DNA from: an uncultured Candidatus Saccharibacteria bacterium
Lineage (GTDB): Bacteria; Patescibacteriota; Minisyncoccia; Phycocordibacterales; PALSA-1337
Length of the DNA: 63,722 nt
Assembly: GCA_964358005.1 (NCBI GenBank)
Contig: CAYHNH010000005.1
Coordinates: 1 to 63,722 of the forward strand
Direction: 5' to 3'
Shown: positions 18,747 to 59,954 of the stretch, piece after piece
How the letters are laid out: every line of letters starts with the position of its first letter
Numbering within the stretch: the stretch's first letter is position 1
Position numbers and translations under genes: made by a program
Notes under the pieces: generated by a model
Told to the model about the DNA's origin: nothing
Seen by the model: the letters and a program-made list of their open reading frames with translations, nothing else
Database searches by the model: none

Positions 18747-18839
18747 ATGGTATATGAGGCATATATCGACTGCGCTCGGACCAAAGCTGATTGCAGGCAT
18801 TCGCTTTTGTCCTCGCTTGTCGCTATAATTTACCCGAAT

Positions 18840-22935: not shown

Positions 22936-24450
22936 ATGAAAATACTCGTCTCGACGGGCATATATCCGCCTGACATAGGAGGACCGGCGACATATTCAGA
23001 ACTGCTGTTCCGGGAACTGCCAAAGAGAGGGGTAGAAGTCGACGTCCAGACCTTCGGCAGCGTGCGCCGTATGCCGAAGGTGTTGAGACACATAGTCTTT
23101 TTTGTCCGGGTCCTATGGCACGGCCGTGCTTCCGATGTAATATTCGCCCAAGATACGGTTTCGGTGGGACTGCCTTCTCTTCTGGCCTCTCTCCTCCTCG
23201 GCAAGCAATTTATGGTCCGAATACCGGGGGATTACGCCTGGGAGCAGTCTGTTCAGCGGTTCGGGGTTACCGATACTATCGATGACTTCCAGAAGAGGCG
23301 CCATGGCATGAGGACCGAATTATTGAAAAAGATCCAGGCTTTCGTGGTCGGCCAGGCGGATCAAGCTATCGCCCCCAGCAAATATTTTGCCGATCTTGTT
23401 CGGGGTTGGGTAGATGATGCTTCCAAGGTCTTGCATATATACAACGGGGTAGACCTGGACGCCCTCGGTGGGGCCGAGGCGAGTTCACACAAACCAAAAA
23501 CGATAATAAGCGCTGGTAGGCTAGTGCCCTGGAAAGGTTTTGACATGCTCATCCGCGCCATGGCCAAGCTTCCTGGCTGGCATCTTTCTATAGCGGGTGA
23601 TGGCCCAGAGATGGCACATTTGAGGTCGCTCATCTCGAAGGACAAGCTGGAGGACCGCGTCACGATGCTGGGCACGATAGAGAAGCCGAAGCTTCGCAGG
23701 CTGATATCGGAGTCAGAAGTGTTCGCACTGAATACGTCCTTTGAGAGCTTCTCTTTTCAGATAGTCGAGGCCATGGCGATCGGTACGCCAGTGGTCTCAA
23801 CCAAAGTAGGCAATATCGCGGAGATAGTCGATGATGGACAGAGCGGCTTATTGATCCAGCCGGACGACGAGGAGGGATTCATCGCGGCAGTGATGCGGAT
23901 ATCGGCCGATGGCGAGTTGCGTGAGAGGCTAGCGTCGGAAGGCAGGAAGAAAGCCGCGGGATTCTCCATTGGATCCACTATAGATAAGCTTATTGCAGTG
24001 CTCGATGGACTTACGGAGAGACCGCCAGAGCACCGCAAGCGCAAGGTTCTCATCGCCAAGATAGCACGGTACCTGTTCTCCGGCGGTGTATCGGCCTTTA
24101 CGGACATACTCCTTCTTTACATATTCACGGACCTGCTCCATATATGGTATCTGACTGCCTCCATCCTGGCCTTCCTGTTCGCTTTCATAGTCAGCTTCTC
24201 CCTGCAGAAATTCTTCACTTTTCAGGATCACAGCAGGGAGGGCATGCATGGCCAGGCGGCGATATATTTCCTGGTGTCTGGTGCCAATCTGCTCATCAAT
24301 ACGGCGCTCATATATCTGTTCGTCCAATACGGGGGATTCCACTACATCGTCGCACAGATCGTCACCAGCATCATGATCGCCATAGAAAGCTTTATAATAT
24401 ATGGTACGTTTATCTTTAAGAAGCAGCTTGGGGACCCGTCAAGAACATGA
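22936..24450 (+). CDS. GT4 glycosyltransferase fused to a GtrA-like 4-TM domain
   Basis: N-terminal part is GT4 (FESFSFQIVEAMAIGTPVVST). The C-terminal ~130 aa, YLFSGGVSAFTDILLLYIF...SFSLQKFFTFQD, match the GtrA family pattern. Confidence 0.85.
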   Translation: MKILVSTGIYPPDIGGPATYSELLFRELPKRGVEVDVQTFGSVRRMPKVLRHIVFFVRVLWHGRASDVIFAQDTVSVGLPSLLASLLLGKQFMVRIPGDYAWEQSVQRFGVTDTIDDFQKRRHGMRTELLKKIQAFVVGQADQAIAPSKYFADLVRGWVDDASKVLHIYNGVDLDALGGAEASSHKPKTIISAGRLVPWKGFDMLIRAMAKLPGWHLSIAGDGPEMAHLRSLISKDKLEDRVTMLGTIEKPKLRRLISESEVFALNTSFESFSFQIVEAMAIGTPVVSTKVGNIAEIVDDGQSGLLIQPDDEEGFIAAVMRISADGELRERLASEGRKKAAGFSIGSTIDKLIAVLDGLTERPPEHRKRKVLIAKIARYLFSGGVSAFTDILLLYIFTDLLHIWYLTASILAFLFAFIVSFSLQKFFTFQDHSREGMHGQAAIYFLVSGANLLINTALIYLFVQYGGFHYIVAQIVTSIMIAIESFIIYGTFIFKKQLGDPSRT

Positions 24451-25478
24451 GATTACTAGTGATAACACAAAAGATCGACCGCTCGGACACTGTCCTCGGC
24501 TTTGTGCATAGCTGGGTCGAGGAATTCTCGAAGCGGCTTACGGCGGTCGTGGTGGTCTGTCTGCAGAAGGGAGATTATGATCTACCAGGCAACGTCGCGG
24601 TGCTCTCCCTCGGAAAAGAAAAGTGGAGGAACACCCTCAAGTATGTCTTCCTGCTCTTCTATTTCTCCATACGATATTTCAACCGCTATGATGCGATATT
24701 GGTGCACATGAACCAGGAGTATGTCCTGGCCGCTGGCTGGCTCTGGAAGCTTTTGGGGAAACGAATATACATGTGGCGCAACCATTATGCGGGCAGTCTG
24801 TTGACTGACATCTCCTCGATATTCTGCACCAAGATATTCTGCACGTCGCACTACTCATATACTGCCAAGTTCAAGAAGACTGTATTCATGCCTGTCGGCA
24901 TAGACACTGATACATTCAGGCCTGACCCTTCCGTCAAGCGCGCACGAGGATCGATACTTTCCCTAGGGAGGATAGCCACGTCCAAGAATATCCATACTCT
25001 CATACAGGCTATGGGGATCCTGCGCGACAGGAAAGTGGCCTTTACTGGTTCGATCTATGGCAATGCCAAGGCAGGGGATGAAAGCTACGAGACATCTTTG
25101 CGCGAACAAGCAGATCGCGTCGGTCTAGGAGGCCAGGTCAAGTTCTATGGTGGCGTGCCTAACACGGCCACGGTCCCTGTGTATTCCGCGCATCAGATAT
25201 TCGTCAACTTGAGCCCGAACGGCATGTATGACAAGACGATATTCGAGGCTATGGCCTGCGGCTGTTTCGTCTTCGCCTCGAACGACGATCTCCGCGACAA
25301 GATAGACCCGGCGTTCTCGTTTGTCTATAACGATGCGGCCGACCTGGCGCGCAAGCTGGAAGCTTTCGTGGAGATGAGCCCCGAGGAGCAGAACAAAAAA
25401 GCGGCCAACATATCAGAGATAGTGAAAAGCCATAGCTTGTCCAAACTTGCAGACAAACTCGTAGGCGAAATAAGATGA
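24447..25478 (+). CDS. Glycosyltransferase (GT4-like)
   Basis: C-terminal GT-B half with YDKTIFEAMACGCFVFAS; ATGA overlap with the upstream gene. Confidence 0.8.
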   Translation: MRLLVITQKIDRSDTVLGFVHSWVEEFSKRLTAVVVVCLQKGDYDLPGNVAVLSLGKEKWRNTLKYVFLLFYFSIRYFNRYDAILVHMNQEYVLAAGWLWKLLGKRIYMWRNHYAGSLLTDISSIFCTKIFCTSHYSYTAKFKKTVFMPVGIDTDTFRPDPSVKRARGSILSLGRIATSKNIHTLIQAMGILRDRKVAFTGSIYGNAKAGDESYETSLREQADRVGLGGQVKFYGGVPNTATVPVYSAHQIFVNLSPNGMYDKTIFEAMACGCFVFASNDDLRDKIDPAFSFVYNDAADLARKLEAFVEMSPEEQNKKAANISEIVKSHSLSKLADKLVGEIR

Positions 25479-27145
25479 AAGCCGTCCTCGCCACTATATT
25501 GATAGCCGCTGTATTCCTCGTGCCCAGGATTTCGGGTATCAGCCTTCCTTACCATCAGGATGAATGGAAGAACGTGTCGACCTCCGAGACGATGGAGGGC
25601 GCGGGAGCGTTCTTTGCTCATCCACCGCTGATGCAGATGATATTCGTGGCTGCCGACAATGTTTTTGGGCATGAATATTTCCGGGTGCTGCCGTTGCTAT
25701 TCGGCGTAGCCGCCGCTATCCTGTTGTATTTCGTGGCGCGCAAGAGGGGAGGCCGGCCTGTGGCGATCTGGTCGGTTGTGCTTTTCTCAGTTTGTTTCTA
25801 TAACATATTCGGATCATTGCAACCCGATGTCGACGGCGCCATCCTGCCGTTCTTCTTCCTTTTGGCCGTGTTCGCTTATGACAGGATCAATGAGGATATG
25901 GTTCTAAATGGCGATGCTTCTACCAAACGCAATTTCCTGATACTGCTCCTCATGTCTTCCGTCCTTGCCGGTCTGCTTATCAAACTGAGCTTTGTGCTTG
26001 TCGTCGCGGCCATATTCATCGATCACCTGTGTGAGCATAGGCAAAAAAATCCCCCAAGGGTCCTAGGCAGCGCTCTGGGCGTATCGGTGGCTCTCGCGGC
26101 CATATATATCGGCCTGCTTTACCTCATAGAAGCTGTATACCCATCTTTCAGCATATCCTTCATGCTAGGGCATGCCAATCAGTACGCTTCCAACGGAGGT
26201 CGAGGCTGGATGCAAATAGCGGTCCAAACCCTTAAGGCTATATATTATCTTTCACCCTTGCTGACTTTGCCGCTTCTGTGGCTTTCGAAGGAGACCTTCA
26301 AAAGAACCAGGATATTCGTGTTGTATATCATCTTTGGTTCGGTCTTTTATTTGGCTGTGTTCGATTTCTCGCAGGGAGCATTGGATAAGTATCTGATGTT
26401 CGTTATCGTGCCGCTTTGCATCATTGTCGGGGATATCCTGGCGTCGGTCTTCTCCAGAAAACCCTATAACAAATACGTTATAGGCATCTTGGCAGTGGCC
26501 ATATCTGTCGGTCTCACCATGCTGAATCTTCTGCCACAGATCGTAGTCGGTCTTCATCCGAAAACTGAATGGTTCTCGAATGTGCTTCATGGAAATTGGA
26601 ATATACTGACGCCATTCACCGGAGGCTCTGGTCCGATAGGCTTTTATGTCTCATTTCTTTTTATTGCGGCTTCATTCATCGTTGTGAGCGTCGTGGCAGT
26701 GGCGGGTAAACTAAGGCCTGACTGGCGGGCTTCTGCCGCGATACTCATCGTGATCATCGGCCTTGCCTATAACGGCATTTTTGCGGAAGAGCTGCTATAT
26801 GGCAGGATAAATGGCAGTGCCCCTGCTGTCCTGCATGACCTGACCGCATACATAAGGTCTTCTTCGGACATAAAAGAGGTCATTACCTACAACGATATCG
26901 GCGCGAGGGAGCTTGGACCCAAGTACGCTGGACGCTTCTATGCCGCACCACAGTTCGAAGAGGTTCATCGTCAAAAGTTCGCTAAATTCAATGGATATTA
27001 TATGATTGTGGACATTCCCCACTTATATGAAACCGGCTTTTACTCACAGTTTTTCAAGAGATGCCATGATGATCATTCCGCCCAGTCATCCAAGATCGCT
27101 GGACACGTCTACAGATGTCCTGTTCTGGAAGAGGTACTACCATAG
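25475..27145 (+). CDS. GT-C type polytopic glycosyltransferase (PMT_2/ArnT-like)
   Basis: About 12 TMs. First loop YHQDEW acidic motif, as in the GT39/GT83 families. Confidence 0.7.
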   Translation: MKAVLATILIAAVFLVPRISGISLPYHQDEWKNVSTSETMEGAGAFFAHPPLMQMIFVAADNVFGHEYFRVLPLLFGVAAAILLYFVARKRGGRPVAIWSVVLFSVCFYNIFGSLQPDVDGAILPFFFLLAVFAYDRINEDMVLNGDASTKRNFLILLLMSSVLAGLLIKLSFVLVVAAIFIDHLCEHRQKNPPRVLGSALGVSVALAAIYIGLLYLIEAVYPSFSISFMLGHANQYASNGGRGWMQIAVQTLKAIYYLSPLLTLPLLWLSKETFKRTRIFVLYIIFGSVFYLAVFDFSQGALDKYLMFVIVPLCIIVGDILASVFSRKPYNKYVIGILAVAISVGLTMLNLLPQIVVGLHPKTEWFSNVLHGNWNILTPFTGGSGPIGFYVSFLFIAASFIVVSVVAVAGKLRPDWRASAAILIVIIGLAYNGIFAEELLYGRINGSAPAVLHDLTAYIRSSSDIKEVITYNDIGARELGPKYAGRFYAAPQFEEVHRQKFAKFNGYYMIVDIPHLYETGFYSQFFKRCHDDHSAQSSKIAGHVYRCPVLEEVLP

Positions 27146-28328
27146 CTATGTAAAGGCATTTGTAGGGCTTTTGGTGCCCACCGGCGCCGCGCCAGAGGAA
27201 TATGCAGTTATGACCGATGTGCTCGGTCATGTGCCGGATGTCGCCGAAGCGCTCCAGAAAGCCAAACAGTCCCTAAATGACGACGGACGGATCGTCATAA
27301 CCCAATACAGCACTCTCTGGGAGCCTGTGGTGCGGCTGGCGTCCCACATCGGCCTGCGCAGCGGACCAGTCGAGCAGAACTGGCTGTCGAAGCTCGATAT
27401 AAGGAATTTCGCTTATCTCACTGGTCTAGATGTAGTCAAATCCGGCACGAAGATGCTGATGCCCGTATACATCCCGGGCATCGCAGAGCTTCTCAATGTG
27501 CTCATAGCCAATATCTGGCCATTCAATCATCTGGGCATATTCAATTATTTCATTCTGCGGAAAGCCGAGCCTAGAGGTATCGCCGCTCATCCAGGCAAGA
27601 AGAATAGGCCGTCGCTATCCATCATCGTGCCGGCCAGGAATGAAGCGGGCACCATTGAGAAGATCGCCCGAGAGCTGCCAGACCTGGGCTCATTTACCGA
27701 ACTCATCTTCATCGAGGGTAATTCGACCGATAATACTTATGACGAGATAAAAAGAGTCGCAGAGTCGATGGGTGAAAAGAGGCTCATCAAGTTCGATAAG
27801 CAGGATGGCAGAGGCAAGGGCGATGCGGTCAGGAAGGGCTTCGATATGGCGACCGGCGATATCCTCGCCATATACGACGCGGATATGACCGTTCCGGCGG
27901 GCGAAGTCAGGAATTTCTATGAAGCTCTCGTAGAGAATAAAGCCGACTTCATCAATGGTTCCCGCCTAGTCTATCCGCTCGAGCAAGATTCTATGAGAGT
28001 CTTGAATTTCTTTGGTAACAAGTTCTTCAGCCTGGCGTTCAGCTGGCTCCTCGACCAGCCGCTCAAGGATACACTCTGCGGCACAAAGGTGCTCTGGCGC
28101 ACGGACTATGAGAAGATAAAGCGGAGCCGGTCATTTTTCGGCGACTTCGATCCGTTCGGCGACTTCGACCTGCTCTTCGGTGCGGCTAAGAACAACTTGA
28201 AGATAATAGACATGCCAGTGCACTACAAGCAGCGCGTCTATGGTGTTACTAACATAAGCCGATGGAAGCATGGTTGGCTCCTTCTCAGGATGACGTTCTT
28301 CGCTGCAGGTAAGTTCAAATTCATATGA
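27006..28328 (+). CDS. GT2 glycosyltransferase with degenerate N-terminal methyltransferase remnant (start uncertain: 27006/27066/27210)
   Basis: GT2 core SIIVPARNE...IEGNSTDNT...YDADMT. The N-terminal region keeps only DVLGHVPDV...DGRIVIT of a class I MTase and has no GxGxG. The ORF overlaps the upstream gene by up to 140 nt. Confidence 0.75.
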   Translation: MWTFPTYMKPAFTHSFSRDAMMIIPPSHPRSLDTSTDVLFWKRYYHSYVKAFVGLLVPTGAAPEEYAVMTDVLGHVPDVAEALQKAKQSLNDDGRIVITQYSTLWEPVVRLASHIGLRSGPVEQNWLSKLDIRNFAYLTGLDVVKSGTKMLMPVYIPGIAELLNVLIANIWPFNHLGIFNYFILRKAEPRGIAAHPGKKNRPSLSIIVPARNEAGTIEKIARELPDLGSFTELIFIEGNSTDNTYDEIKRVAESMGEKRLIKFDKQDGRGKGDAVRKGFDMATGDILAIYDADMTVPAGEVRNFYEALVENKADFINGSRLVYPLEQDSMRVLNFFGNKFFSLAFSWLLDQPLKDTLCGTKVLWRTDYEKIKRSRSFFGDFDPFGDFDLLFGAAKNNLKIIDMPVHYKQRVYGVTNISRWKHGWLLLRMTFFAAGKFKFI

Positions 28329-30100
28329 AACTCACTGTCATAGTCCCTGTATTCAACGAGTCCCGCACGATCGGACAGATAATCGACAGGATAGTCCAGG
28401 CGCCGCTCCCACCGGGATTCGAGAAAGAGATCGTCGTCGTAGACGACTTCTCGGCCGATGGCACCCGCGGCATGCTGGATGAGCTTAAACGAAAGCACAA
28501 GTTCCAGGTGATCCTCCACGAGAAGAACCGCGGCAAAGGCGCCGCGATGCGTACAGGCCTCGCTGCGGCTACGGGGGAGTTCGCAGTCATCCAGGATGCC
28601 GATCTGGAGTACGATCCAAACGAATACACGAAGCTCCTCGAGCCGCTTCTTTCTGGTCAAGCAGAGATCGTATACGGATCAAGATACATGAATAAGAAGC
28701 AGTCGGACCTGTTTTCTGTGAATTATTTTGCCAATCGGATATTGACGTTTATTTCCAATCTATTCAATGGCCAGAGGCTGACTGATATGGAGACCTGTCA
28801 CAAGATGTATACAAAGAATGCCTACACGAAGATAGCGCCGCTCCTGCGATCTGAACGCTTTGACATCGAACCGGAGATAACTTCGTCTGCGGCGCGCTGC
28901 GGTTTCAGTATCATAGAGGTACCGATCTCATACGAGCCCCGGACTGCTAGGGAAGGCAAGAAGATCAAATGGCATGACGGCATACCGGCAGTCTGGGCGA
29001 TCGCACGCTTCGGCATACGAGGCCTTTGGAGGGTCAGACAGTGGCAGGTAATGCTGATTATCAGCCTGGCCGTATTAGTCCTTCTATTCGGCGCTTTTCA
29101 AGGCCCGAATATCCTAGGCGATACCCCGACGTACGTGCAGTCCATAGAGGTGTTGAATGGGGCGCAGCCGACCGCAGATTTTATACCGAACAGGCTCTTG
29201 ACGACTTTTCTTGGGCTTGAGCTCATAAACCTGCTGTCCCACATCTTCGGTGGCATATACCCAGCTTGGTTTGTATTGAACTGCTCATTATATTTTCTTG
29301 CCTGCATATTCTTTTTTAAGATCCTATCCAGGATGCTCAAGAATGAACAAGCCGCCTATTTTGGGACGATGTTCTTGGCGGCTAACTATGGCTTCCTGAT
29401 ATTCGGCCTGAATTATCTTATGGACGTTGGGGGCTGGTCATTCTATATATTCGCGCTGTATTTCCTGTGGAGATATTCTGTATCAAAGAAAACCAGCCAC
29501 ATCCTCTGGTCCGCGGCCATGGTGGGCCTTGGCGGCTTGTTCAAGGAATACGCTTTCCTAGCAGCGCTCGCGATAGCGATGGTCCTCATACTTGAGAATG
29601 GTCAGAGGCTCGGTGCGCTTGCCAAGAAAGCGGCCTTGACTGCGTTCATAGCCCTTGTGCCGATAGTCGTGCTCTATTCCTGCGTCTACTCTTATTTTGG
29701 CTATACCTACGCAGATTGGTTCGGCTCGAATTCCGTACACTATGTCTATGCTTCCAGGATGATCGAATACATCAAGTCCTTAGGCTCGTTGGTAAATGTT
29801 CTCGCCCTCGCATTCATCGCCGGCTTGTGGGTCATATTGAGGCACTGGAGGGATGTGGGCAGGGAGGCGCGGGTATTCCTGTTCAGCTTGCTTGTCTCGA
29901 TCATACCGATATTCTTCTGGCCGGCGATCACTCAAAGGATCATGACCGTGACTATCCCGTTCATTGCTATCGTTTCCGCATTCTTTTTTAGGAGACAAAA
30001 GAATAAATGGCCGGTGTTCGCCGCTTTGCTAGCGATCTATGTCCTAGCTACATTCCTCATGGACTCTGTTGTTCTTAAGGCCGTCAATCTGCCGTTCTGA
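28325..30100 (+). CDS. GT2 (polyprenyl-phosphate sugar synthase type) fused to polytopic membrane domain
   Basis: TVIVPVFNE, VVVDDFSADGT, IQDADLEYDP, then ~360 aa with ~9 TMs. Confidence 0.8.
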   Translation: MKLTVIVPVFNESRTIGQIIDRIVQAPLPPGFEKEIVVVDDFSADGTRGMLDELKRKHKFQVILHEKNRGKGAAMRTGLAAATGEFAVIQDADLEYDPNEYTKLLEPLLSGQAEIVYGSRYMNKKQSDLFSVNYFANRILTFISNLFNGQRLTDMETCHKMYTKNAYTKIAPLLRSERFDIEPEITSSAARCGFSIIEVPISYEPRTAREGKKIKWHDGIPAVWAIARFGIRGLWRVRQWQVMLIISLAVLVLLFGAFQGPNILGDTPTYVQSIEVLNGAQPTADFIPNRLLTTFLGLELINLLSHIFGGIYPAWFVLNCSLYFLACIFFFKILSRMLKNEQAAYFGTMFLAANYGFLIFGLNYLMDVGGWSFYIFALYFLWRYSVSKKTSHILWSAAMVGLGGLFKEYAFLAALAIAMVLILENGQRLGALAKKAALTAFIALVPIVVLYSCVYSYFGYTYADWFGSNSVHYVYASRMIEYIKSLGSLVNVLALAFIAGLWVILRHWRDVGREARVFLFSLLVSIIPIFFWPAITQRIMTVTIPFIAIVSAFFFRRQKNKWPVFAALLAIYVLATFLMDSVVLKAVNLPF

Positions 30101-30150
30101 CGCCTAGATAAGCGCCTCGGCTATTAGATCGAAGAAGATCATATAATAAA

Positions 30151-32325
30151 ATGGTGAAACCAGAACTAACGATAGTCATCCCGACATACAATGAGGCCGA
30201 CCTCATAGAATCTTCGCTTATGCGTATAGGCGAGGCGCTAGGCGACATGCGCTCGCGGACGGAGATCATCATCGCTGATGACGGGAGCGATGATCTACCA
30301 GCGGTGATCGACCGGTGCCGCGGATCTTTAGGCTTCGCGGCGATCCTGGTGATGCGCAATGAGACCCCTCTGGGAAAAGGCGGATCGATAGCGCGGGCCT
30401 TCCGCGCATCAAGCGGCGTTGTCGTCGGCTTCATCGACGTTGACCTATCGGTCGCTCCGTCCTATATCCGAGAGGCGGTGCGTGAGATAAAGGAGGGGAA
30501 TGATATATGCATAGCTAAGCGTGTGGGCAATAGATTCAAGAGCGATGGGTCCCTGGCCATAAGCATAGTTGCTACCGTATTTGCATTCGTTCACAGTAGG
30601 CTGATCTTCGGCCGCAAGAGGTCATTTGCTGATACACAGTGCGGCTTTAAGTTCTTCAAGAATGCCGTAGCGCTGAGATTGTATGAAGGTCTGGTCGCTA
30701 CTGACGGTCTCACTGATCTGGAAGTGCTGTTGAAAGCCGTCAGGCTAGATTACAAGGTCGTCGAGATCGAAGTTCCTAGGAAGAATGACAGGATCGGCAA
30801 GAGGAGGATATCCTCCATTTTCGTGAGCGAGCTTTTGTCTCTATGTAGGATATTTTGTAAGCACAAGCTAGCACCGGGCATGGCATCTGTCAGACATTTC
30901 ATAGAGAAACACAGATATCTTTTTATTATTCTTTTCCTTGGCATCATAATCCAGCTCGGCACGTTCGCGACATTGAAGAGCATATCAGCCGACCAGCCCG
31001 AGTCCCTGCATCACATGTTCCCGATAATGGGAGGAGGTTTCGATTCTACCCACTACAGCACGCTACCGGACAATATCCTGGATTACGGCAATTTTTCCCT
31101 ACAGCCGGGTTCGGACGGGAACCCTGAGACCTTCCGCACCCCGGCGTACCCATTCTTCGTAGCCATGATCAAATATCTGACGGGCGGCATAGATGCTGTG
31201 CCGATATTCCAGACATTCCTTCTGGCCATCGGCGCTTACCTGGGATATTTCATATCCTTATCCGTGGCTCCTCTGCGTAGGAGGGTAGCTCTGGCCGTCG
31301 CGGCCTGCTTCATGATCGATCCTGTCTCTTTTTTCGCTACGCAATTCCTGGCTACGGAATCGCTCTACACTGTCCTCTTTTTGGCGGGCATATATTTTTT
31401 GGTCGGGAATCCACGTCCGCGGATATGGGCCTTCGCCCTGTCAGGGTTATTCTACGGGCTTAGCGCCCTCACCAGGCCGTCGGGGCTCTATACTATCGTC
31501 CCTATCGGGCTCTGGATGATCTGGCATATTTTTCGGGCCGAAAACAGGAGAGCTATGCTCATCGGCGCGGGAGTCTTCTGTCTCGCAGGCGCTATCCTGA
31601 TCGTTCCCTGGTACATAAGGAATGGAGTTAGGACCGGCGTCTATTCATTCTCTTCTCTCGAGGCCTATAACATGCTGAACTTCAACTTGCCTGTATATCT
31701 GTCGTATGAAAGCGGATACAAGCTGTCGATCGAGGATGTGCGCGCAGACATGCACAAGAAAATAGGGGGTATATCCGATGACGAACAGCTGGATCTCCGT
31801 AATAGTCCGATGATGAAGCAGGTCATCTGGAAAGAGCTAGAGCCACGCATCCTAAGCTACGGTTTCTTCCACTTGAGCAAAAGCCTAAATTTCTTCTTCA
31901 GCCCAGGCACGAAGCTCGATGCTAGCATCCTCCGCGGATTCTGGGAGCAGCAGCCGATTGAGGATTGGCACCCGCAGACAAGCTTGGTGAACAGCCTGAT
32001 CGATGGCCGGCCGAAAGATGTCCTTGCCTGGCTCGGCTCGAACAAGGTCTATTTCCCCGAGAGCCTTCTGTTAGTATGTTTGTTCCTGCTGGGCCTGTAT
32101 TGGAGCATCGCCTCCAGATCGAACAATGCTCGGCTCCTGTTCGGACTCATCCTATTCCTCGGCATCCTCACCAGCCCGATAACCAATCCCCGCTACCGCG
32201 CGCCGATAGTGCCGTTCGTGTATCTTTGTGGTTTCATGGGTGCGGCCATGCTCATCGAAAGAGCTAGACAAAAAAAGCGCCGCCTGATCTTGCCAAGCGG
32301 CGTTGCTAAGATGAGCTCCTTTTGA
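30151..32325 (+). CDS. GT2 (polyprenyl-phosphate sugar synthase type) fused to a GT-C-like polytopic domain
   Basis: TIVIPTYNE, IIADDGSDD, IDVDLS, then ~490 aa with many TMs (RTPAYPFFVA loop). Confidence 0.8.
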   Translation: MVKPELTIVIPTYNEADLIESSLMRIGEALGDMRSRTEIIIADDGSDDLPAVIDRCRGSLGFAAILVMRNETPLGKGGSIARAFRASSGVVVGFIDVDLSVAPSYIREAVREIKEGNDICIAKRVGNRFKSDGSLAISIVATVFAFVHSRLIFGRKRSFADTQCGFKFFKNAVALRLYEGLVATDGLTDLEVLLKAVRLDYKVVEIEVPRKNDRIGKRRISSIFVSELLSLCRIFCKHKLAPGMASVRHFIEKHRYLFIILFLGIIIQLGTFATLKSISADQPESLHHMFPIMGGGFDSTHYSTLPDNILDYGNFSLQPGSDGNPETFRTPAYPFFVAMIKYLTGGIDAVPIFQTFLLAIGAYLGYFISLSVAPLRRRVALAVAACFMIDPVSFFATQFLATESLYTVLFLAGIYFLVGNPRPRIWAFALSGLFYGLSALTRPSGLYTIVPIGLWMIWHIFRAENRRAMLIGAGVFCLAGAILIVPWYIRNGVRTGVYSFSSLEAYNMLNFNLPVYLSYESGYKLSIEDVRADMHKKIGGISDDEQLDLRNSPMMKQVIWKELEPRILSYGFFHLSKSLNFFFSPGTKLDASILRGFWEQQPIEDWHPQTSLVNSLIDGRPKDVLAWLGSNKVYFPESLLLVCLFLLGLYWSIASRSNNARLLFGLILFLGILTSPITNPRYRAPIVPFVYLCGFMGAAMLIERARQKKRRLILPSGVAKMSSF

Positions 32326-32334
32326 GGACCGAGC

Positions 32335-32976
32335 CTACTGTTCCCTGAGATTCGAAGGCCAAACAATGGCGGCCGCAATCACGCTCGATGTGCAAATGAC
32401 CAAAATCCACCAAGTCCCGACGTTTGCCATACAGGTAATGCAGGCAAACAAGTAGGACATCGCGAGTTCGGGCATCGATAGGGTGCTCGGGCGCAGCCAG
32501 AATGTGCGAATCCACTCGGTGTGGCCGACATCTCGGATGTATTTTTCTCGTTTCGATTGACCGATCTTTTCTCGGCCATTTGTGAAACTGAACGAATCCT
32601 GCGTGAATGGCCAGAGTGCGACAAGCCCTCCATACGGTCCGGTCATGTCGTGGATGTAGTGGCCGGCGAGACATACACCTGCGATAATCGCCCAGGGTAT
32701 ACCGCCAATCAGGAGCGCTACGGTCACCCCAGTGGGGACGGTAAGGATTGGGTAGTGGAATGGTGACCTATGGTGATCGACCTCCACACCCTTTTTGGCG
32801 AACTGGCTCGGCAGGTCGATATCCGGCGCGAGGGCCAATAATCCACCAATAAAGGGGGCGAGGTAGGACGAATCGAGCCCATACCAGAGCATGACTAGGG
32901 TGGCAACGAGTGCCCCGAAGCAGAAATCAAGGGCGGCCGCGAGGCCATTCCCGATCAGTTTGTTGACAAGGTTCAT
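32335..32976 (-). CDS. Membrane-bound metal-dependent hydrolase-like (DUF457/YdjM-like)
   Basis: PDIDLP...DHHRSPFH pattern and several TMs. The ATG at 32976 is preferred to the TTG at 32985. Minus-strand TTTACA-17-TATAAC promoter at about 33013-33041 (not counted to the base). Confidence 0.55.
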   Translation of the reverse strand: MNLVNKLIGNGLAAALDFCFGALVATLVMLWYGLDSSYLAPFIGGLLALAPDIDLPSQFAKKGVEVDHHRSPFHYPILTVPTGVTVALLIGGIPWAIIAGVCLAGHYIHDMTGPYGGLVALWPFTQDSFSFTNGREKIGQSKREKYIRDVGHTEWIRTFWLRPSTLSMPELAMSYLFACITCMANVGTWWILVICTSSVIAAAIVWPSNLREQ

Positions 32977-33028
32977 TGAAATCAAGGTTCGTTTTTGCTG
33001 TGCTGTTTTGGTTATAACATAGATACCT

Positions 33029-33208
33029 CACTCTGTAAATAGGTGAAAATTGAGTGATGGGGTTGCCTTCTTCAAAACCCGAAAAGCAATCACGGACAGC
33101 ACCTAAAAAGCATTGCCTAGTTGAATAGGCGCCACAAGGGTTCCTGGGCGACCAAATTATTTTACGACGTTAAAATGACCCTTCAGATTTTTTGAGGTTT
33201 CGAAGAAG
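33029..33208 (+). repeat. Intergenic repeat: short B-3' fragment (33029-33064) plus unit A copy 1 (33066-33208)
   Basis: Aligns by eye with 57501-57645 over ~140 nt, mostly identical with a few substitutions and 1-nt indels. 33029-33064 aligns with 36745-36776. Confidence 0.75.
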
Positions 33209-33438
33209 ATGAGCCGGGCATATGTGCAGGTGGGGGGTAATGACAGGGGCAAATAATGCGATTATATGGGACCTACACCATCTCGCTTCACTGAATATTT
33301 TTTATATACAGGAATGTACGGACGTGGTGTTATCCAAAACTGTAAATAAAAATTTTCTTGTTAGAGGAGAAGCTGTCTCCAGGGCAAGCGAACGATCAAA
33401 AGTATTTTCGTAGACAGTCTTGGGGAAGAGCTTCATGG

Positions 33439-34323
33439 TTAACCACGCCTAGCGATGATGTTCCTGAAAGCATTCTTCGGAATGCTCTGCACGAAATCCT
33501 TTATGTTCTCGATAGGCTTGACCAGCTCTTCCTCATCATCTATGACGGAGAGGGAGAAGCCTAGCGATCTCAACTGGCTCAGATACGCGACAGCCGATTC
33601 GCCGAGCTTGTTCATGCATCTCGGATAGACCTCGGAGAATATGACGAGGTTAGGGCTCCTAGCGATAGTCTTTTGCATGCCGCGCAAGGCGATGGGTTCG
33701 GCCCCCTCGATGTCTATCTTTATGATATCGAGCGCAGGGTCGCTGTAGGCGTGGAGGGCTTCATCGAGCGTTGTGGTTTTTACCGTGATCTTTCCTGTAG
33801 TGACTCCGTCCCGTCCAAATGAGTGGTGCCCCTTATTATATTTTTGTATATAAAGATCATGCTCGCCAACAGCATCTGATGCTGCAGCGGCTATGATGGT
33901 CACGTTCCTCGAACCGTTCACGGCAACGTTCTTCTCGAGGAACGATCTGTTGCGCGGCTCCGGTTCGAAAGAGAAGACCCTTCCTGCCTGGCCGACGGTT
34001 CTCGATGCGAGCAAAGAATAATAACCGATGTGCGCTCCGATGTCGGCGACCTTCATGCCTGGGCGAAGGGCCGCGAGGAAGAGACCGGTCTCAAATGACT
34101 CGAAGCCTTTGAGTGCGATTGACCCTGATACCGCGATATCCTCTCGGTCGAGGAATATAGTACTGCCGTTCGTCTCGACCTTCTCGGGTATCGATCGGCG
34201 TACGATCGCTCCGAGGATGTCGCGCAAGACGGGCACCCGGAGTGTGGAATTGTATATGAACGCAGGCGCGCCGTGCGGCAGAAGCCCGATGATCTTAGAC
34301 AGTATGTTCTTGCGTGGTATCAT
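33439..34323 (-). CDS. FkbM family methyltransferase
   Basis: VADIGAHIGYYS...IIKIDIEGAEPIALRG is characteristic of the FkbM domain. Confidence 0.85.
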   Translation of the reverse strand: MIPRKNILSKIIGLLPHGAPAFIYNSTLRVPVLRDILGAIVRRSIPEKVETNGSTIFLDREDIAVSGSIALKGFESFETGLFLAALRPGMKVADIGAHIGYYSLLASRTVGQAGRVFSFEPEPRNRSFLEKNVAVNGSRNVTIIAAAASDAVGEHDLYIQKYNKGHHSFGRDGVTTGKITVKTTTLDEALHAYSDPALDIIKIDIEGAEPIALRGMQKTIARSPNLVIFSEVYPRCMNKLGESAVAYLSQLRSLGFSLSVIDDEEELVKPIENIKDFVQSIPKNAFRNIIARRG

Positions 34324-34358
34324 GTAGTTTCACGAGTATACTACATAATCAAACCGAC

Positions 34359-36518
34359 ATGAAAGGCGCACGGAAGATCATACTCATACCCACTTACAAT
34401 GAGAAAGACAACATCCTCGGCCTGCTTTCGCGCCTGACCGCCTCGTATCCAGACACGGAAGTCTGGGTCATAGACGACAATTCTCCAGATGGTACCGGCG
34501 CCGCGGTGGAGTCTTTTGCCAAGGGAAATACATCAGTCCGGCTCATAAAAAGAGAGAAGAAGAACGGCCTAGGCGAAGCCTACAAGCACGCTTTGCGCAT
34601 CATACAGGGGATGGATGATGTCGCTCTCGTCCTCACCATGGATGCCGATGGCTCACATGATTCCGCAAGCGTCGCGGCATTATTCTCGGCCCTCGAGGAC
34701 AAGGATATGGCCATAGGCTCCAGATATGTGAAAGGCGGAGCCATAGACGGCTGGGACCGCAAGCGTTTACTCTTGAGCTCCGGAGGCAACCTGTATATCC
34801 GATTGCTCACCGGCATACCGATACGCGATTCGACGGCCGGATTTGTCGCCTACAGGAAGGCAGCTTTGGACCGGCTCGATCTGGGAAGGCTCTCTAGCGC
34901 TGGCTATTCGTATCAGATCGAGTTCAAGAACGCCATGCTCGAATCAGGCTCCTCATACACGGAGGTGCCGATAACATTCCATGAGAGGCGCATCGGGTCG
35001 TCGAAGGTGTCGTTTAAGATAGTCGCGGAGGGACTGCTCACTCCTTTCCATATATTCTTCCAGAAGATGAGGAAGCTCCGCCTACGCTCATGGATCGCCG
35101 CGGCCCTCATCCTCGCTACAGTTTTCTTTGCCTTCTTCCGGCTAACCGAGAGCCCATCGGTCTGGTATGACGAAGGCTTGTACATACAGATGGCCGATCA
35201 TATATCGCAGGGCGAGCCGTCCGGCTTCCAGACTGCGCCAGGGAAGATAGAGAACGTCTCGAAGGTGAGCGTCGGTTACCCGCTTACATATCCTATCGCG
35301 CTTCTGTTCAGGATATTCGGCTATGATATCGCGACGGCCAGGGTCTTCATGGCGGCCTGCATAATCCTCTTGGTCATATTCTCGTACCTGCTCGCCAGGC
35401 GGTCGTTCGCCGCTGGAGCGGCGCTCTTCTCCCTAGCTCTGGTGTCGATGTTCCCGCCTCTATACGGCAATGGCAAGAGCGTTCTCGGCGAAGTCCCTGG
35501 CATCCTATATCTCGTCATATCTCTGTATGCCTTGAACCGCGGCTTGAAGGGTAGCCGTTTTGCGCTCGTCCTGGCTGGCGTATTTGCCGGGCTTTCCGCC
35601 GTGACCAAGCCGATATTCATACTCATCGTGCCGGCATTCGTGATCGCACTTTTTGTCGCCAGGAAGTCTCATGGTTTGCGCGCGAAAGACATATTAGTTG
35701 CCATCATCTCTGCCGCCGCACCTGTGTTGGTCTGGATCGTGACCCAATTCGGCATGGGGGACTCATTCCGCGAGATCGTAGGTTTCTACGCCAATCCACA
35801 GCCAGGGCAGGGCATATTGGCGACATTGGGCTCAAATCTTGCGCATATATTCTCTGATTTCGGCCTGCTGTATCTGGTCATAGTCATGGCTGTCTGGATC
35901 ATATCATTCATCGTGCGCAGGAAATCGAGCCGCGCGATAGGCCTGGTTGAAGCGATGGCTTTCACATTCTCGCTCCTCATCGTGCTTGCGTACCTGCGTA
36001 CAGCAGGGTACAACCGCTATCTTTTTCCGGCACAGATGATATCGCTCATATATTTTCCCGAGGCCATATCCTGGGTCTTCAGCCGCGCGCGGGAGAAGCT
36101 TCGCCTCTCGCCACTGTTCCAGTCGACTCTTGTGCCGCTGGGCGTGCTCCTTCTCTTCGTTGCCGGTATCTACCAGCTCATGTTCAATTCCTGGGTGGCG
36201 GATTCATACAGCAGTCACAAGACGGAGTTCTGGCAAGAGTATTTTACATCGCATGATCTGCAAAATGTTTTATTCTACGATGTTCCAGAAGTGGCGATCT
36301 TTGCTCGTAACCCGGAATTCTATCAGTATATCCTCATGGCACCGGCATCAGGTATAAATGTCGGCTCGGCCAACCTGGTTGGTCTCAAGGAAGGCACCTT
36401 CGACACGGTCATCATGACGCGCTCTAAGTTCGAGGATATGGGGAAGGATGTGATGCGTCACTACCGTGAGGTCGGCGCGCCTTATAAGTATGTGATTTTG
36501 GATAGGAAGCCTCTCTAA
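34359..36518 (+). CDS. Dolichyl/polyprenyl-phosphate mannose synthase-like GT2 fused to a GT-C (PMT_2-like) domain
   Basis: ILIPTYNEKDN, VIDDNSPDGT, MDADGSHD (DPM1-like), then ~480 aa polytopic with a first-loop WYDEG motif. Confidence 0.85.
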   Translation: MKGARKIILIPTYNEKDNILGLLSRLTASYPDTEVWVIDDNSPDGTGAAVESFAKGNTSVRLIKREKKNGLGEAYKHALRIIQGMDDVALVLTMDADGSHDSASVAALFSALEDKDMAIGSRYVKGGAIDGWDRKRLLLSSGGNLYIRLLTGIPIRDSTAGFVAYRKAALDRLDLGRLSSAGYSYQIEFKNAMLESGSSYTEVPITFHERRIGSSKVSFKIVAEGLLTPFHIFFQKMRKLRLRSWIAAALILATVFFAFFRLTESPSVWYDEGLYIQMADHISQGEPSGFQTAPGKIENVSKVSVGYPLTYPIALLFRIFGYDIATARVFMAACIILLVIFSYLLARRSFAAGAALFSLALVSMFPPLYGNGKSVLGEVPGILYLVISLYALNRGLKGSRFALVLAGVFAGLSAVTKPIFILIVPAFVIALFVARKSHGLRAKDILVAIISAAAPVLVWIVTQFGMGDSFREIVGFYANPQPGQGILATLGSNLAHIFSDFGLLYLVIVMAVWIISFIVRRKSSRAIGLVEAMAFTFSLLIVLAYLRTAGYNRYLFPAQMISLIYFPEAISWVFSRAREKLRLSPLFQSTLVPLGVLLLFVAGIYQLMFNSWVADSYSSHKTEFWQEYFTSHDLQNVLFYDVPEVAIFARNPEFYQYILMAPASGINVGSANLVGLKEGTFDTVIMTRSKFEDMGKDVMRHYREVGAPYKYVILDRKPL

Positions 36519-51723: not shown

Positions 51724-51724
51724 C

Positions 51725-55044: not shown

Positions 55045-55050
<6 letters not shown>
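54346..55050 (+). CDS. pseF: CMP-nonulosonic acid synthetase (PseF/NeuA-type cytidylyltransferase)
   Basis: VVTARGGSKRIPRKN...ISTDD. Confidence 0.8.
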
Positions 55051-56325
<1,275 letters not shown>

Positions 56326-56340
56326 TCTATTATATTATGT

Positions 56341-57165
56341 CTATATGATGTCGGCGAAATATCTTTCCGTCTTTTTGAAATAGGTCAGGCCTATGACTAG
56401 AAGGACTACGCCAGCGATGAACGACGCCAGGATGAGGGCCCAGTTCACTGGTGTAGTGCCGAGCAGGGCGGCGCGGGCGCTCTGGATGACTCCCATCATG
56501 GGATTGAGGGCTAGGAATTTCGAATAGGCGCCAGCGATGGAGGCTGGGTATATCACAGGAGTGACGAACAGGAGGAGCTGGATGAAGAATGGCAGGGCAT
56601 AGCGGACGTCGCGGTATTTTATGTTGACCGCAGACAGCAAGAGGCCGAGGCCTATGGCCGACATGAAGGTGAGTATGAGTAGGAGCGGCAGGATGAGGAG
56701 GCCGCCGAGGTTCGGAGTATAGCCGTAGTAGATCATCATACAGATAAGGATAACGGCGGCGATGAGGAAGTCTATGAATTTGGTGAGCACTGTGGAGATG
56801 GGGAGGAGCAGGCGCGGGAAGTAGACCTTGGAGACGATGGCTTTGTTGGCGAGGAGGGAATTGCTGGTCTCACCGAGAGCGTCAGAGAAGAACTGCCAGA
56901 ATAGGAGGCCTGTATAGACGAAGATGGGATATGGGACGCCGTCTGAAGGGACACCTACGAGGGTGCCGAAGAAGAATGAGAAGACCACCATCGTGATGAA
57001 TGGTTGGAGCACTGACCACAGAACGCCGATAGCGGTCTGCTTGTAGCGGACTTTGAGGTCCCTCCAGGATAGGAAGTACAGCAGTTCGCGGTAATTCCAG
57101 AGCTCTCGCAGGTCGGAAAGGTGGAATAACCGCTTCGGGCGTATTACGGTTACGGCCGTAGACAT
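56341..57165 (-). CDS. ABC-2 type polysaccharide export permease (Wzm/TagG-like)
   Basis: LRELWNYRELLYFLSWRDLKVRYKQT plus 6 TMs. Confidence 0.88.
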   Translation of the reverse strand: MSTAVTVIRPKRLFHLSDLRELWNYRELLYFLSWRDLKVRYKQTAIGVLWSVLQPFITMVVFSFFFGTLVGVPSDGVPYPIFVYTGLLFWQFFSDALGETSNSLLANKAIVSKVYFPRLLLPISTVLTKFIDFLIAAVILICMMIYYGYTPNLGGLLILPLLLILTFMSAIGLGLLLSAVNIKYRDVRYALPFFIQLLLFVTPVIYPASIAGAYSKFLALNPMMGVIQSARAALLGTTPVNWALILASFIAGVVLLVIGLTYFKKTERYFADII

Positions 57166-57645: not shown

Positions 57646-57767
57646 ACTCCCACCAACCATTATAGGCCCGCCAGCCGCAGACCCTCTTATTTGTATGCGA
57701 TTTTTTTTACGATTTGCCTGGACGATTCTTGCAAAACGGCCGTTATATTAGTACTCTTACATCCATC

Positions 57768-59954
57768 ATGATTAAAAAGACTGCCAAATTCATATCTACT
57801 ACAGCATTATTCCTCGTCCCCTTATTCGCCCTCATAGTCGCCGATTCGTTCTTCTTCCCGTTCATAACAGGGAAGGCCTTTTACTTCCGCATTCTCGTAG
57901 AGGTCGCTTTCGCTGGCTGGCTCATCCTGGCATTTATGGACGCCAAATACAGGCCGAAGTGGACGCCTCTCACTATCGGAGTCAGCCTTTTTGCTCTCAT
58001 CACTCTCATTGCTGATCTCCTCGGCGTCAACCCGATCCGCAGCCTGTGGTCCAACTTTGAGCGCATGGAGGGCTGGATGGCCATCGTCCATCTCTGGGCG
58101 TTCTTCATCGCCGCCACTGGCATATTCGGCTCAGGGGAGGAAGGCAAGCGCATCTGGCACCGCTGGATCAACGTCCAACTAGGAGTAGCGGTGATCGTTG
58201 CCATCTACGGCATCCTCCAGCTCATGGGAAAGCTCGATATCCACCAGGGCTCGACCCGTATAGACGCCTCACTCGGTAACGCGGCGTACATGGCGGTCTA
58301 CATGCTTTGGAATACCGGCTTGGCCGCGTACATGTTCTGTGTCGCACGCGCTAAGCAGATTGGCCGCTCGGGATTCTTCCAGTGGGCATATCCGATCATC
58401 GCTATCATCTTCGGCTACGAAGTATTCCAGACTGCCACACGCGGCACGATCCTCGGCTTGATTGGCGGCATCATGCTGGCGCTCTTGCTCTACGCCATCC
58501 TTGCTAAGAATGCTTCCAAGTCCAGGCGCTGGTACGTAGTGGGTGTCATCGTGCTCATGCTCGCTCTCGGCGGCGTCTTCTGGGCCAATCGCGACGCGCA
58601 GTTCGTGAAGGATAGCGAAGTGCTATCTCGCATGGCATCCATCTCATGGTCGCAGGCACAAGGTCAGGCCCGCAACTACATCTGGCCGATGGCGGTCAAA
58701 GGCCTCGCGGAGCGCCCTATCCTCGGCTGGGGGCAGGAGAATTTCAATTATGTTTTCAATGCCAATTACGCACCGAAGATGTGGAACAACGAGCAGTGGT
58801 TCGATCGAGCCCACAGCGTCTTCCTGGACTGGATGTCGGCTTCGGGCATCGTAGGCCTTCTCGCATACTTAGCCCTGTATGTCCTATTCCTAGTGATGGT
58901 CTGGAAATCCTCGATGACCATAGGCGAGAAGAGCATCTTGACCGGCCTCATCGTGGGCTATGCAATACACAATATATTCGTGTTCGATAACATAGCGAGC
59001 TACGTCCTGTTCTTCGCGGCTTTAGCTTTTGTGAATTCATTCCGAGAAGGCCGTCCGATAAAGGCGCTAGGAGAGAAGTCCTTGTCTTCCGAAGGTATCG
59101 CCTACATCGCGGCCCCGGCCGTGCTCATAGCGCTCATCGCCGTCCTGTATGCTTACAATGTAAGGCCTATGCAGGCCAATACTAGGCTCATAAAGGCGCT
59201 TAGCGCATGCGCTACGCAAAATCCGAGCGCGGAACTATTCGAGAGCGCGCTCTCCGTCCGCGCCTATGTCGCCAGTCAGGAGATCAGGGAACAGCTCCTG
59301 GCATGTTCCAACCGCGTCCTCACCTCGGATCAGCAGACTGGCCAGGTCAAACAGGTTTTCTTCAATATCACCAAGCAGTCCATCCAGGACCAGATAGCGG
59401 CGACTCCATTCAAGGATGCCCGCATCTATGTGCTCGCAGGCTCATTCATGAATATGATCGCGCGCTTCGAGGATGCTCTACCGCTCTTGGCCCAGGCTCA
59501 CGAGCTGTCGCCGACCAAGCAGAGCGTGAACGTCGAATACGCCACGGCGCTCATCAATAACCGCAAGCCTGCCGAAGCGGTCAAGATACTGGAGGCCGAT
59601 TACGCGGTCACTCCGGAGAACGAGCATGTGAGGGATCTGTACGCTCTTGCGTTGGTCGCTAACCAGCAGGAGGCGAAGGCTAGGCAGATATTCAGCGCCG
59701 AGCCGGAGATGTTCGAGACTATGCAGATGGCGCAGGCTTATACGATAGCCAACCAGCTGGATAAGGCGATCATGGTATATAAGAAATTCCTGGAGAAGAA
59801 TCCGAACGATCTGAACGCCTCAGTGCAGCTGGCTCGCTTGCAATATACGACGGGGCAGAAGTGGGAGGCTGTGCAGACTTTCAGAGCTTTGCAGAAGGCC
59901 TATCCGCAATATAAAGACGCGATAGAGGCGGCTATCCAGGAGGCGAGCAGGTAG
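57768..59954 (+). CDS. O-antigen ligase-like (Wzy_C) polytopic protein with C-terminal TPR repeats
   Basis: About 12 TMs, a large loop with RAHSVFLDWMSASGIVGL, and a C-terminal ~250 aa TPR-like region. The ATG at 57768 is preferred to the TTG at 57714. Confidence 0.8.
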   Translation: MIKKTAKFISTTALFLVPLFALIVADSFFFPFITGKAFYFRILVEVAFAGWLILAFMDAKYRPKWTPLTIGVSLFALITLIADLLGVNPIRSLWSNFERMEGWMAIVHLWAFFIAATGIFGSGEEGKRIWHRWINVQLGVAVIVAIYGILQLMGKLDIHQGSTRIDASLGNAAYMAVYMLWNTGLAAYMFCVARAKQIGRSGFFQWAYPIIAIIFGYEVFQTATRGTILGLIGGIMLALLLYAILAKNASKSRRWYVVGVIVLMLALGGVFWANRDAQFVKDSEVLSRMASISWSQAQGQARNYIWPMAVKGLAERPILGWGQENFNYVFNANYAPKMWNNEQWFDRAHSVFLDWMSASGIVGLLAYLALYVLFLVMVWKSSMTIGEKSILTGLIVGYAIHNIFVFDNIASYVLFFAALAFVNSFREGRPIKALGEKSLSSEGIAYIAAPAVLIALIAVLYAYNVRPMQANTRLIKALSACATQNPSAELFESALSVRAYVASQEIREQLLACSNRVLTSDQQTGQVKQVFFNITKQSIQDQIAATPFKDARIYVLAGSFMNMIARFEDALPLLAQAHELSPTKQSVNVEYATALINNRKPAEAVKILEADYAVTPENEHVRDLYALALVANQQEAKARQIFSAEPEMFETMQMAQAYTIANQLDKAIMVYKKFLEKNPNDLNASVQLARLQYTTGQKWEAVQTFRALQKAYPQYKDAIEAAIQEASR

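Follow-up and report, generated by a model that had tools for sequence, protein, structure and literature searches.

In three-component systems for glycosylation outside the cytoplasm, a family 2 glycosyltransferase (GT2) resembling DPMS, GtrB or ArnC makes a polyprenyl-phosphate sugar, and an enzyme of the GT-C class uses it outside the membrane. We find the same two enzyme types, with the same implied chemistry as in GtrA/GtrB/GtrC of Shigella phages, CsbB/GtcA/YfhO, GacI-J-K-L, PgfS/PgfM and ArnC/ArnT, in three genes (F1, F2 and F3) of an uncultured Candidatus Saccharibacteria bacterium. They lie in a stretch of 63,722 nucleotides (GenBank assembly GCA_964358005.1, contig CAYHNH010000005.1, positions 1 to 63,722 of the forward strand), the whole of which we call the window. 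Unlike the components of those systems, synthase and GT-C are here joined in one polypeptide, and the synthase has no transmembrane (TM) helices of its own, having lost them or never had them; in relatives the two genes are usually separate and often adjoin, sometimes together with GtrA. The GT2–GT-C fusion is genuine and recurs, but as a variant of this well-known bacterial glycosylation system it is still uncharacterised. Dozens of fused proteins are present in public databases, annotated just as "glycosyltransferase". No published description was found in a full-text literature search of incomplete coverage, which agrees with the preliminary description of this DNA, made from its letters and open reading frames (ORFs), in which no characterised example was known. 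The three genes are as follows.

28325..30100, + strand: F1, a 591-residue fusion of GT2 (about residues 1-235, 28325-29029) to a minimal GT-C domain (residues 236-591, 29030-30097); the first-loop aspartate D266 is codon 29120-29122.
30151..32325, + strand: F2, a 724-residue fusion of an Alg5/GtrB-like GT2 (residues 1-243, 30151-30879) to a GT-C domain that starts at Met244 (30880); the first-loop aspartate D298 is codon 31042-31044.
34359..36518, + strand: F3, a 719-residue fusion of a DPM1-like GT2 (residues 1-238, 34359-35072) to an ArnT-like GT-C domain that includes a C-terminal soluble domain (residues 239-719, 35073-36515); D271 of its WYDEG motif is codon 35169-35171.

The preliminary description had read these three ORFs as GT2 domains fused to polytopic domains, and both an ORF check and Pfam bear this out. 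All three reading frames are uninterrupted; for F3 we prefer the start codon ATG 34359 to GTG 34314 because its closest homologues are 719-720 residues long. The N-terminal part matches PF00535 (E = 1.5e-32, 3.6e-20 and 2.2e-28 for F1, F2 and F3), and the C-terminal parts of 356, 481 and 481 residues match PMT_2 (PF13231) in F1 (E = 2.2e-8) and F3 (E = 1e-13) and PMT (PF02366) in F2 (E = 3.5e-5), in every case above the gathering score. Their hydropathy profiles are alike, with a soluble domain of about 235-243 residues followed by a junction rich in lysine and arginine, TM1, a first loop and about 10-13 more hydrophobic helices. The first loops are 44-66 residues long and contain one to three lysines or arginines each. 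With such strong E-values and conservation in many independent assemblies, this architecture is far beyond chance.

The sequence motifs that the preliminary description assigned to all three GT2 domains are present in F1 (VPVFNE, DDFSADGT, QDADLE) and F3 (IPTYNE, DDNSPDGT, MDADGS). F2 has IPTYNE, then departs from the expected pattern: ADDGSDD, in which DGT is missing, stands in place of DDxSxDGT, and IDVDLS carries DVD instead of DAD. These DxD metal sites are invariant among the fused homologues of F1 and F3. The best relative of known structure for every GT2 half, by sequence, is the Pyrococcus furiosus DPMS (5mlz; E = 2.7e-25 for F3, 4.4e-16 for F1 and 8.9e-11 for F2), and ArnC and GtrB come next, which supports the earlier assignment of these domains to the polyprenyl-phosphate glycosyltransferase type. 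In Foldseek searches the modelled N-domain of F3 likewise matches 5mlz (E = 2.9e-12), ArnC and GtrB, and that of F1 matches ArnC, DPMS and GtrB. The NCBIfam top matches are all lipid-phosphate sugar synthases (AglJ, PgfS, ArnC and PpgS), at scores under the curated cutoffs.

The three GT2 domains differ considerably, with pairwise identities of about 25%, and are assigned by sequence to different subfamilies, of which that of F3 is DPM1-like. Residues 7-227 of F3 align to 5mlz (phmmer, E = 5e-26), including the block GSRYVKGG..W..RK..S.G, which holds the acceptor phosphate in DPM1-type enzymes (PMC7185993). Of this block, F1 retains GSRY alone; F2 has AKR. Beyond the fusion family, the F1 domain is closest to proteins of GT2-GtrA or methyltransferase-GT2 architecture from many phyla. 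A DTQCGFK signature marks the F2 domain; among its relatives are several LPG_synthase_TM fusions, of which one is listed by its source as a dolichyl-phosphate beta-glucosyltransferase. A recent tandem duplication of one fused gene is ruled out as the origin of the trio by the low identity of the GT2 domains and by C-domains that can barely be aligned.

All three C-domains are predicted to be GT-C enzymes, on profile evidence for F1 and F2 and on a modelled structure for F3. We built full-length AlphaFold2 models of F3 (pLDDT 92.7, pTM 0.80) and F1 (pLDDT 94.3, pTM 0.88) from alignments of 78 and 71 homologues, respectively. The C-domain of F3 matches ArnT in the PDB (Foldseek, 5f15, E = 2.7e-8, 584 columns, TM-score 0.56 on the target) as well as STT3 chains of oligosaccharyltransferase, and it therefore has the GT-C fold. 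A profile of stand-alone F1-type homologues aligns to the F3-type C-profile with 95% probability (E = 3.4e-8, 317 columns), placing D266 on D271. The F2 C-profile aligns to the same F3-type profile with 97% probability (E = 5.7e-11) and also matches the GT-C enzyme PIG-M, the glycosylphosphatidylinositol mannosyltransferase I (23gf_B, E = 1e-6). At 356 residues and with no soluble domain, the GT-C part of F1 is unusually small.

In these profile alignments the acidic residue directly after TM1 occupies one column in all three proteins (D266 in F1, D298 in F2 and D271-E272 in F3, the last within WYDEG at residues 269-273). It belongs to a common first-loop D-x-x-x-Y pattern, which reads DTPTY in F1, DSTHY in F2 and DEGLY in F3, and the aspartate is invariant in the F1 family and at least 90% conserved in the F2 and F3 families. 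The preliminary description would have abandoned its GT-C reading had the C-domains lacked the fold and the acidic loop; both are present, as judged from Pfam, from Foldseek for F3 and from profile comparison for F1 and F2. The distribution of charges predicts that the N-terminus of the GT-C domain is cytoplasmic and the first loop outside, as fits a cytoplasmic GT2 fused at the N-terminal end. P0080, an 897-residue protein on a 15.9-kb Logan contig, shares 38% identity with F2 across 97% of its length and has the order GT2, GT-C, methyltransferase. Since the methyltransferase at its C-terminus is cytoplasmic, the F2-type GT-C is predicted to end on the cytoplasmic side.

Both halves of the fusions look active. 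In the F3 family, D95, D97 and D157 of the GT2 domain and D271 of the GT-C domain are invariant in 28/28 fused homologues; in the F1 family, the same holds for D91, D93 and D154 of GT2 and D266, K407 and E408 of GT-C in 36/36. The conserved GT-C residues are identical in fused and free homologues. This bears on the alternative that the GT-C-like part is only a membrane anchor or activator of the GT2 synthase and no longer transfers sugar. Precedents for such a role are the polytopic Lnt domain for Ppm1 in Mycobacterium tuberculosis and GacJ and Rv3632 for their respective synthases. None of the free GT2 relatives contains a TM helix, so they need a membrane partner, and the same synthase family is also fused to other membrane modules (GtrA/DPMS_TM in P0141, LPG_synthase_TM at loci L085 and L092). 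A plain anchor, however, would not retain catalytic residues, and here the first-loop aspartate, the tyrosine that follows it and a K/E or TKP basic site are invariant in the fused proteins and the same in stand-alone GT-C enzymes. We therefore argue that the C-domain is not a mere anchor, a role that we regard as quite improbable. A different doubt concerns the GT2 domains, which might not be lipid-phosphate sugar synthases but ordinary cytoplasmic enzymes for the extension of an acceptor, lipid-linked or not; they might also be processive synthases like BcsA or HAS, with the TM region as a channel. Their fold scores to GpgS, WrtF and RmlT are close to those for ArnC and GtrB, there are partial NCBIfam matches to PgaC/IcaA, and no NCBIfam match reaches its curated cutoff. 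Set against this are the ranking of DPMS, ArnC and GtrB as the best solved sequence relatives of all three, the acceptor-phosphate block kept in F3, and a genomic pairing with GT-C and GtrA of the kind that GtrB-type enzymes should show. A BcsA-like synthase is ruled out by the TM part, whose homology is to GT-C enzymes and not to synthase channels, and the alternative as a whole is very improbable.

The joins themselves could be artefacts, and the preliminary description had named split orthologues as a sign of this. For F3 we found about 28 full-length fused homologues (34-90% identity) in NCBI, JGI, ENA and Logan assemblies, and for F1 about 36 (34-62% identity) in different assemblies, so the dozens of assemblies sustain these two fusions, which are not artefacts. 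F2 fared less well: its join is seen on one contig, and its closest relatives are split. The C-half of F2 is 67-70% identical to stand-alone GT39 proteins of 472-474 residues (P0242-P0245), whose start, MTSIRHF, aligns to Met244. P0273, a stand-alone protein of 247 residues that ends at the junction (...IFKKYRLSK*), shares 57% identity with the GT2 half. The F2 junction itself reads ...IFCKHKLAPG-MASVRHF..., with an internal ATG at 30880. The homologue search found no close fused homologue of F2. F2 could thus result from an error of assembly or sequencing, or from an accident that is very recent, and the cell would then make a GT2 of about 243 residues and a GT-C from Met244 as two proteins. 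In favor of this, each half has stand-alone proteins as its nearest relatives, whose ends coincide exactly with the junction, where an ATG is present, and the protein cluster comes from a single contig. The frame of F2 nevertheless agrees with that of its orthologues to the last codons, which rules out a frameshift origin; the join would instead require loss of a stop codon and spacer. More distant fused proteins have the same plan (P0080, P0282, P0317 and P0381), and two neighboring genes are joined alike with ample independent support. We conclude that the F2 join is probably real, if unconfirmed, and that an artefact or accident is doubtful.

The arrangement is neither rare nor unique, as it recurs across Patescibacteria. 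We scanned hidden Markov models of six domains against loci fetched from species-representative genomes, and all matches that carry a name belong to this group, including Paceibacterota and Yonath-, Kaiser-, Uhr-, Niyogi-, Vogel- and Zambryskibacteria; a few records have generic labels. A cluster look-up of eight proteins named two, the fused P0317 and the stand-alone GT2 P0273, both from Patescibacteria lineages. For P0263, a fused protein from GC-rich-looking sequence, other phyla yielded only the GT2 half, either free or joined to an MprF-like TM domain. A side observation also concerns other phyla (a delta-proteobacterial metagenome-assembled genome, an unclassified bacterium and others): there, as in L085 (2211-4118) and L092 (3846-5810), a GT2 of the F2-like DTQCGFK type is fused to LPG_synthase_TM, an MprF flippase-like module that sits at the N-terminus of the GT2.

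Among 81 F3-type GT-C genes in the survey, 6 are fused to an N-terminal GT2. A separate GT2 is adjacent, meaning within 150 nucleotides on the same strand, in 38/81 (33 directly downstream and 5 upstream), and 37 have none adjacent; GtrA is adjacent in 5 and fused in 1. The 44 F1-type genes include 10 fusions and 8 with an adjacent GT2. One of the fused F1-type proteins (in L198) carries an F2-like GT2, and another (L168, 4897-7041, which is the 714-residue P0141) is a GT2-GtrA-GT-C triple fusion confirmed by Pfam. Relatives of the window's enzymes thus include both triple fusions and GtrA-GT-C double fusions: GtrA is joined to GT-C at 743-2572 of L048 and in P0086, P0102 and P0141. L031 (7513-10182) and L033 (7450-10130) have GtrA, GT-C and a TM-less GT2 of 234-244 residues, the three classical components in a row. 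Where the GT2 partner is free, it has 229-252 residues, no TM segment, an amphipathic helix at its end and a stop at the fusion point.

The most common F3-type gene order is GT-C followed by GT2, yet all fusions seen have the GT2 at the N-terminus, and neither GT-C-family survey (n = 81 and n = 44) contains a GT2 fused to the C-terminus. This fits the predicted topology, because the N-terminus of the GT-C domain is cytoplasmic and, in the ArnT-like F3 type, the C-terminal domain is outside. On neighbor-joining trees of the C-domains, which are rough and unsupported, the fused state changes at least 11 times in the F1 family and at least 8 times in the F3 family. By this rough estimate, the fusion may have been gained and lost repeatedly. 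Pairings also differ between genomes. At the syntenic locus L207, where identities are about 50-75%, F3 has a fused orthologue; the F1-type GT-C is a separate protein without a neighboring GT2, and P0273, the F2-like GT2, is encoded downstream of a further F3-type GT-C. The F2-type GT-C of L209 and L210 is preceded by an F1-type GT2, 14-25 nucleotides upstream.

The glycan locus around F1-F3 spans about 39 kb (20.7-60 kb of the window) and also encodes several methyltransferases and five GT4 enzymes, among them a GT4-GtrA fusion. The genes that bear on their function are listed here.

22936..24450, + strand: GT4 (GT-B) enzyme fused to a GtrA/DPMS_TM domain, 504 residues (Pfam Glycos_transf_1 8e-38, GtrA_DPMS_TM 3.7e-21).
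25475..27145, + strand: stand-alone GT-C, 556 residues, with HQDEW (residues 27-31) after TM1 and a weak PMT_2 match (E = 1.9e-4, below the cutoff).
27006..28328, + strand: methyltransferase fused to GT2, up to 440 residues (Pfam GT2 2.1e-21 and Methyltransf_23; best NCBIfam match AglJ).
39205-42370, - strand: pathway of the dTDP-3-amino-3,6-dideoxyhexose type, with an RmlA-like NTP transferase, FdtA 3,4-ketoisomerase, DegT aminotransferase and 4,6-dehydratase/epimerase.
48598-55050, + strand: nonulosonic-acid pathway (pseudaminic/legionaminic acid-like), with a Polysacc_synt_2 (PseB-like) dehydratase, DegT, NeuB, two formyltransferase-like proteins, a PIG-L deacetylase and a CMP-sugar synthetase.
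55045..57165, - strand: Wzt (ABC ATPase with a Wzt_C glycan-binding domain) and Wzm (ABC-2 permease) (ABC_tran 8e-23, Wzt_C 1e-14, ABC2_membrane 2.7e-17).
57714..59954, + strand: Wzy_C (O-antigen ligase-like) protein, 746 residues, with C-terminal tetratricopeptide (TPR) repeats and about 10 hydrophobic peaks (Wzy_C 3e-18).

The stand-alone protein at 25475 brings the GT-C enzymes of the window to four. It aligns to the F3-type GT-C profile (hhalign, 93.9% probability, E = 1.5e-7), has an orthologue of 47% identity in L207, and is followed by the methyltransferase-GT2 gene in the common order of GT-C then GT2. Both acidic motifs pointed out in the preliminary description, WYDEG in F3 and HQDEW in this protein, are located where it placed them. 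The 27006-28328 protein is the fourth DPMS/AglJ-like GT2 of the cluster. Its longest ORF overlaps the 3' end of the 25475 gene by 140 nucleotides and its L207 orthologue has 418 residues; the real start is probably downstream of the TTG at 27006, among the ATG and GTG codons at 27066-27210. The four-helix GtrA domain of the 22936-24450 protein (residues 378-494, about 24067-24417) recurs in the same GT4-GtrA fusion in L207 and is a candidate flippase component. A Wzm/Wzt pair is also found beside GT-C and GT2 genes in L001, and the Wzy_C-TPR protein is a candidate ligase for the finished glycan. The set of Wzm/Wzt and Wzy_C-TPR occurs here in a monoderm-type bacterium of the candidate phyla radiation (CPR).

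Neither a Pfam match nor a predicted TM helix was obtained for four ORFs of 298-585 residues in the cluster (42367-43335, 44327-45259, 45881-46777 and 46774-48531, all on the - strand), which could encode glycan-modifying enzymes not yet described. Just upstream of the cluster, a 667-residue protein (18735-20738, + strand) has weak matches to TrwB/TraG-type coupling proteins and HerA-like ATPases, and a DUF4015 putative glycoside hydrolase is encoded at 16808-17974.

From the homologies of their parts, we consider it likely that F1-F3 are single-chain forms of two of the three parts of a three-component extracytoplasmic glycosylation system, and that they decorate a glycan exported by Wzm/Wzt. 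The cytoplasmic GT2 domain would take one sugar from a nucleotide sugar and attach it to polyprenyl phosphate in the inner leaflet, using its DxD metal site and, in F3, the DPM1-type phosphate-binding block in addition. The lipid-sugar would then be flipped, perhaps by the GtrA domain at 24067-24417, and the GT-C domain would hand the sugar to an acceptor outside the membrane by means of the invariant aspartate that starts the first external loop. At the level of the locus, a glycan could be built on a lipid carrier in the cytoplasm, exported by Wzm/Wzt and decorated outside by the four GT-C enzymes, with sugars supplied by the GT2 synthases fused to or neighboring them; the acceptor, the sugars and the flippase in this scheme are inferred. 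The acceptor is likely the glycan assembled by the GT4 enzymes of the cluster or a glycoprotein that bears it. The preliminary description had each fusion add a different sugar; judging by the divergence of the GT2 domains and, even more, of the C-domains, the three enzymes probably differ in the sugar they add or in the position at which they act. The join is simple in topological terms: free GT2 relatives lack a TM helix and carry an amphipathic helix at their end, the N-terminus of the GT-C is predicted to be cytoplasmic, and loss of a stop codon and spacer between a GT2 gene and the GT-C gene downstream of it would therefore yield a working fusion.

Several observations weigh against this interpretation or against parts of it. 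The fusion does not account for flipping, and among the window ORFs scanned there is no GtrA-family domain besides the one fused to GT4. The best 50 Foldseek matches of the full-length F1 model all fall on the GT2 domain, so that the GT-C fold of the F1 C-domain is not seen directly and its assignment comes from Pfam and profile-profile comparison; the profiles of the F1 and F3 C-domains match no PDB structure by sequence. The F2 join is known from this contig and assembly only, its protein cluster being recorded from that one contig. Finally, GT2 and GT-C subfamilies are paired differently in different genomes, and a fused GT2 may feed other GT-C enzymes, just as a fused GT-C may use donors made elsewhere. 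In known systems a single lipid-sugar pool can serve several GT-C enzymes, which this exchange of partners resembles.

The preliminary description proposed that the fusions are dedicated channelled modules. Because one synthase subfamily is found with different GT-C families, strictly dedicated and sealed modules are less likely; the balance of evidence is against exclusivity, and flipping is needed in any case. The benefit of fusion is most likely membrane tethering, a 1:1 stoichiometry and the closeness of synthase to consumer, which would include re-use on the spot of the carrier that is released; a sealed channel between the two is less likely. A bolder and unlikely possibility is that each fusion is a self-contained transmembrane sugar relay, in which the GT-C domain sits on the interface helix of the GT2 and provides the path for the lipid-sugar and the return of the carrier, with no separate flippase. 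The GtrA-bearing triple fusions of relatives would then, just as improbably, be an alternative answer to the same problem. If such a relay exists, the translocation of lipid-linked sugars, whose machinery remains unproven, would have a minimal system for its study in these single-chain enzymes.

Returning to the three-component interpretation, its main value is Rosetta-stone evidence. A gene fusion is a classical sign that two proteins cooperate physically, and a physical complex has been hard to demonstrate for GtrABC-type systems. The occurrence of GT2-GT-C, GtrA-GT-C and GT2-GtrA-GT-C fusions beside split operons indicates, as far as gene arrangement can, that synthase, presumed flippase and outside transferase form a complex in these bacteria. 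The fused proteins also offer a compact experimental system, since they could serve in single-chain form for structure determination or reconstitution of the making, flipping and use of lipid-linked sugars; F1, with its compact 591 residues and high-confidence model, is a good candidate. More broadly, four GT-C enzymes in a single window suggest that genome-reduced CPR bacteria invest heavily in decorating their surface glycans, which bears on host attachment and phage recognition.

Relative to the three-component systems, the only GtrA domain detected in the scanned ORFs of the window is fused to GT4, and the host is a CPR bacterium. Pfam puts the C-domains of F1-F3 in the PMT/PMT_2 families, as for the PMT enzymes of GT39, and the C-domain of F3 shares with ArnT (5f15) its fold, in which a core of TM helices is combined with a first external loop that bears the catalytic aspartate and with an outside domain at the C-terminus. 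The GT-C parts of F1 and F3 nevertheless have no detectable sequence match to ArnT, PMT, STT3 or any other solved GT-C. On the synthase side, the closest solved relatives and their kin, namely the P. furiosus DPMS (5mlz) and the GT2-GtrA and GT2-LPG_synthase_TM fusions, illustrate that this family is often joined to a membrane module, which is a 4-TM GtrA-like or an MprF-flippase-like domain in those proteins and a GT-C transferase in F1-F3. The polyprenyl-phosphate-mannose synthase Ppm1 of M. tuberculosis (Rv2051c) is fused to a polytopic Lnt domain and is split as Ppm1/Ppm2 in M. smegmatis. Like the proteins described here, it is a TM-less lipid-sugar synthase bound or fused to a polytopic enzyme, with fused and split forms in related species. 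Unlike in F1-F3, its membrane partner is an acyltransferase and not the GT-C that consumes the lipid-sugar, and the order of the domains differs.

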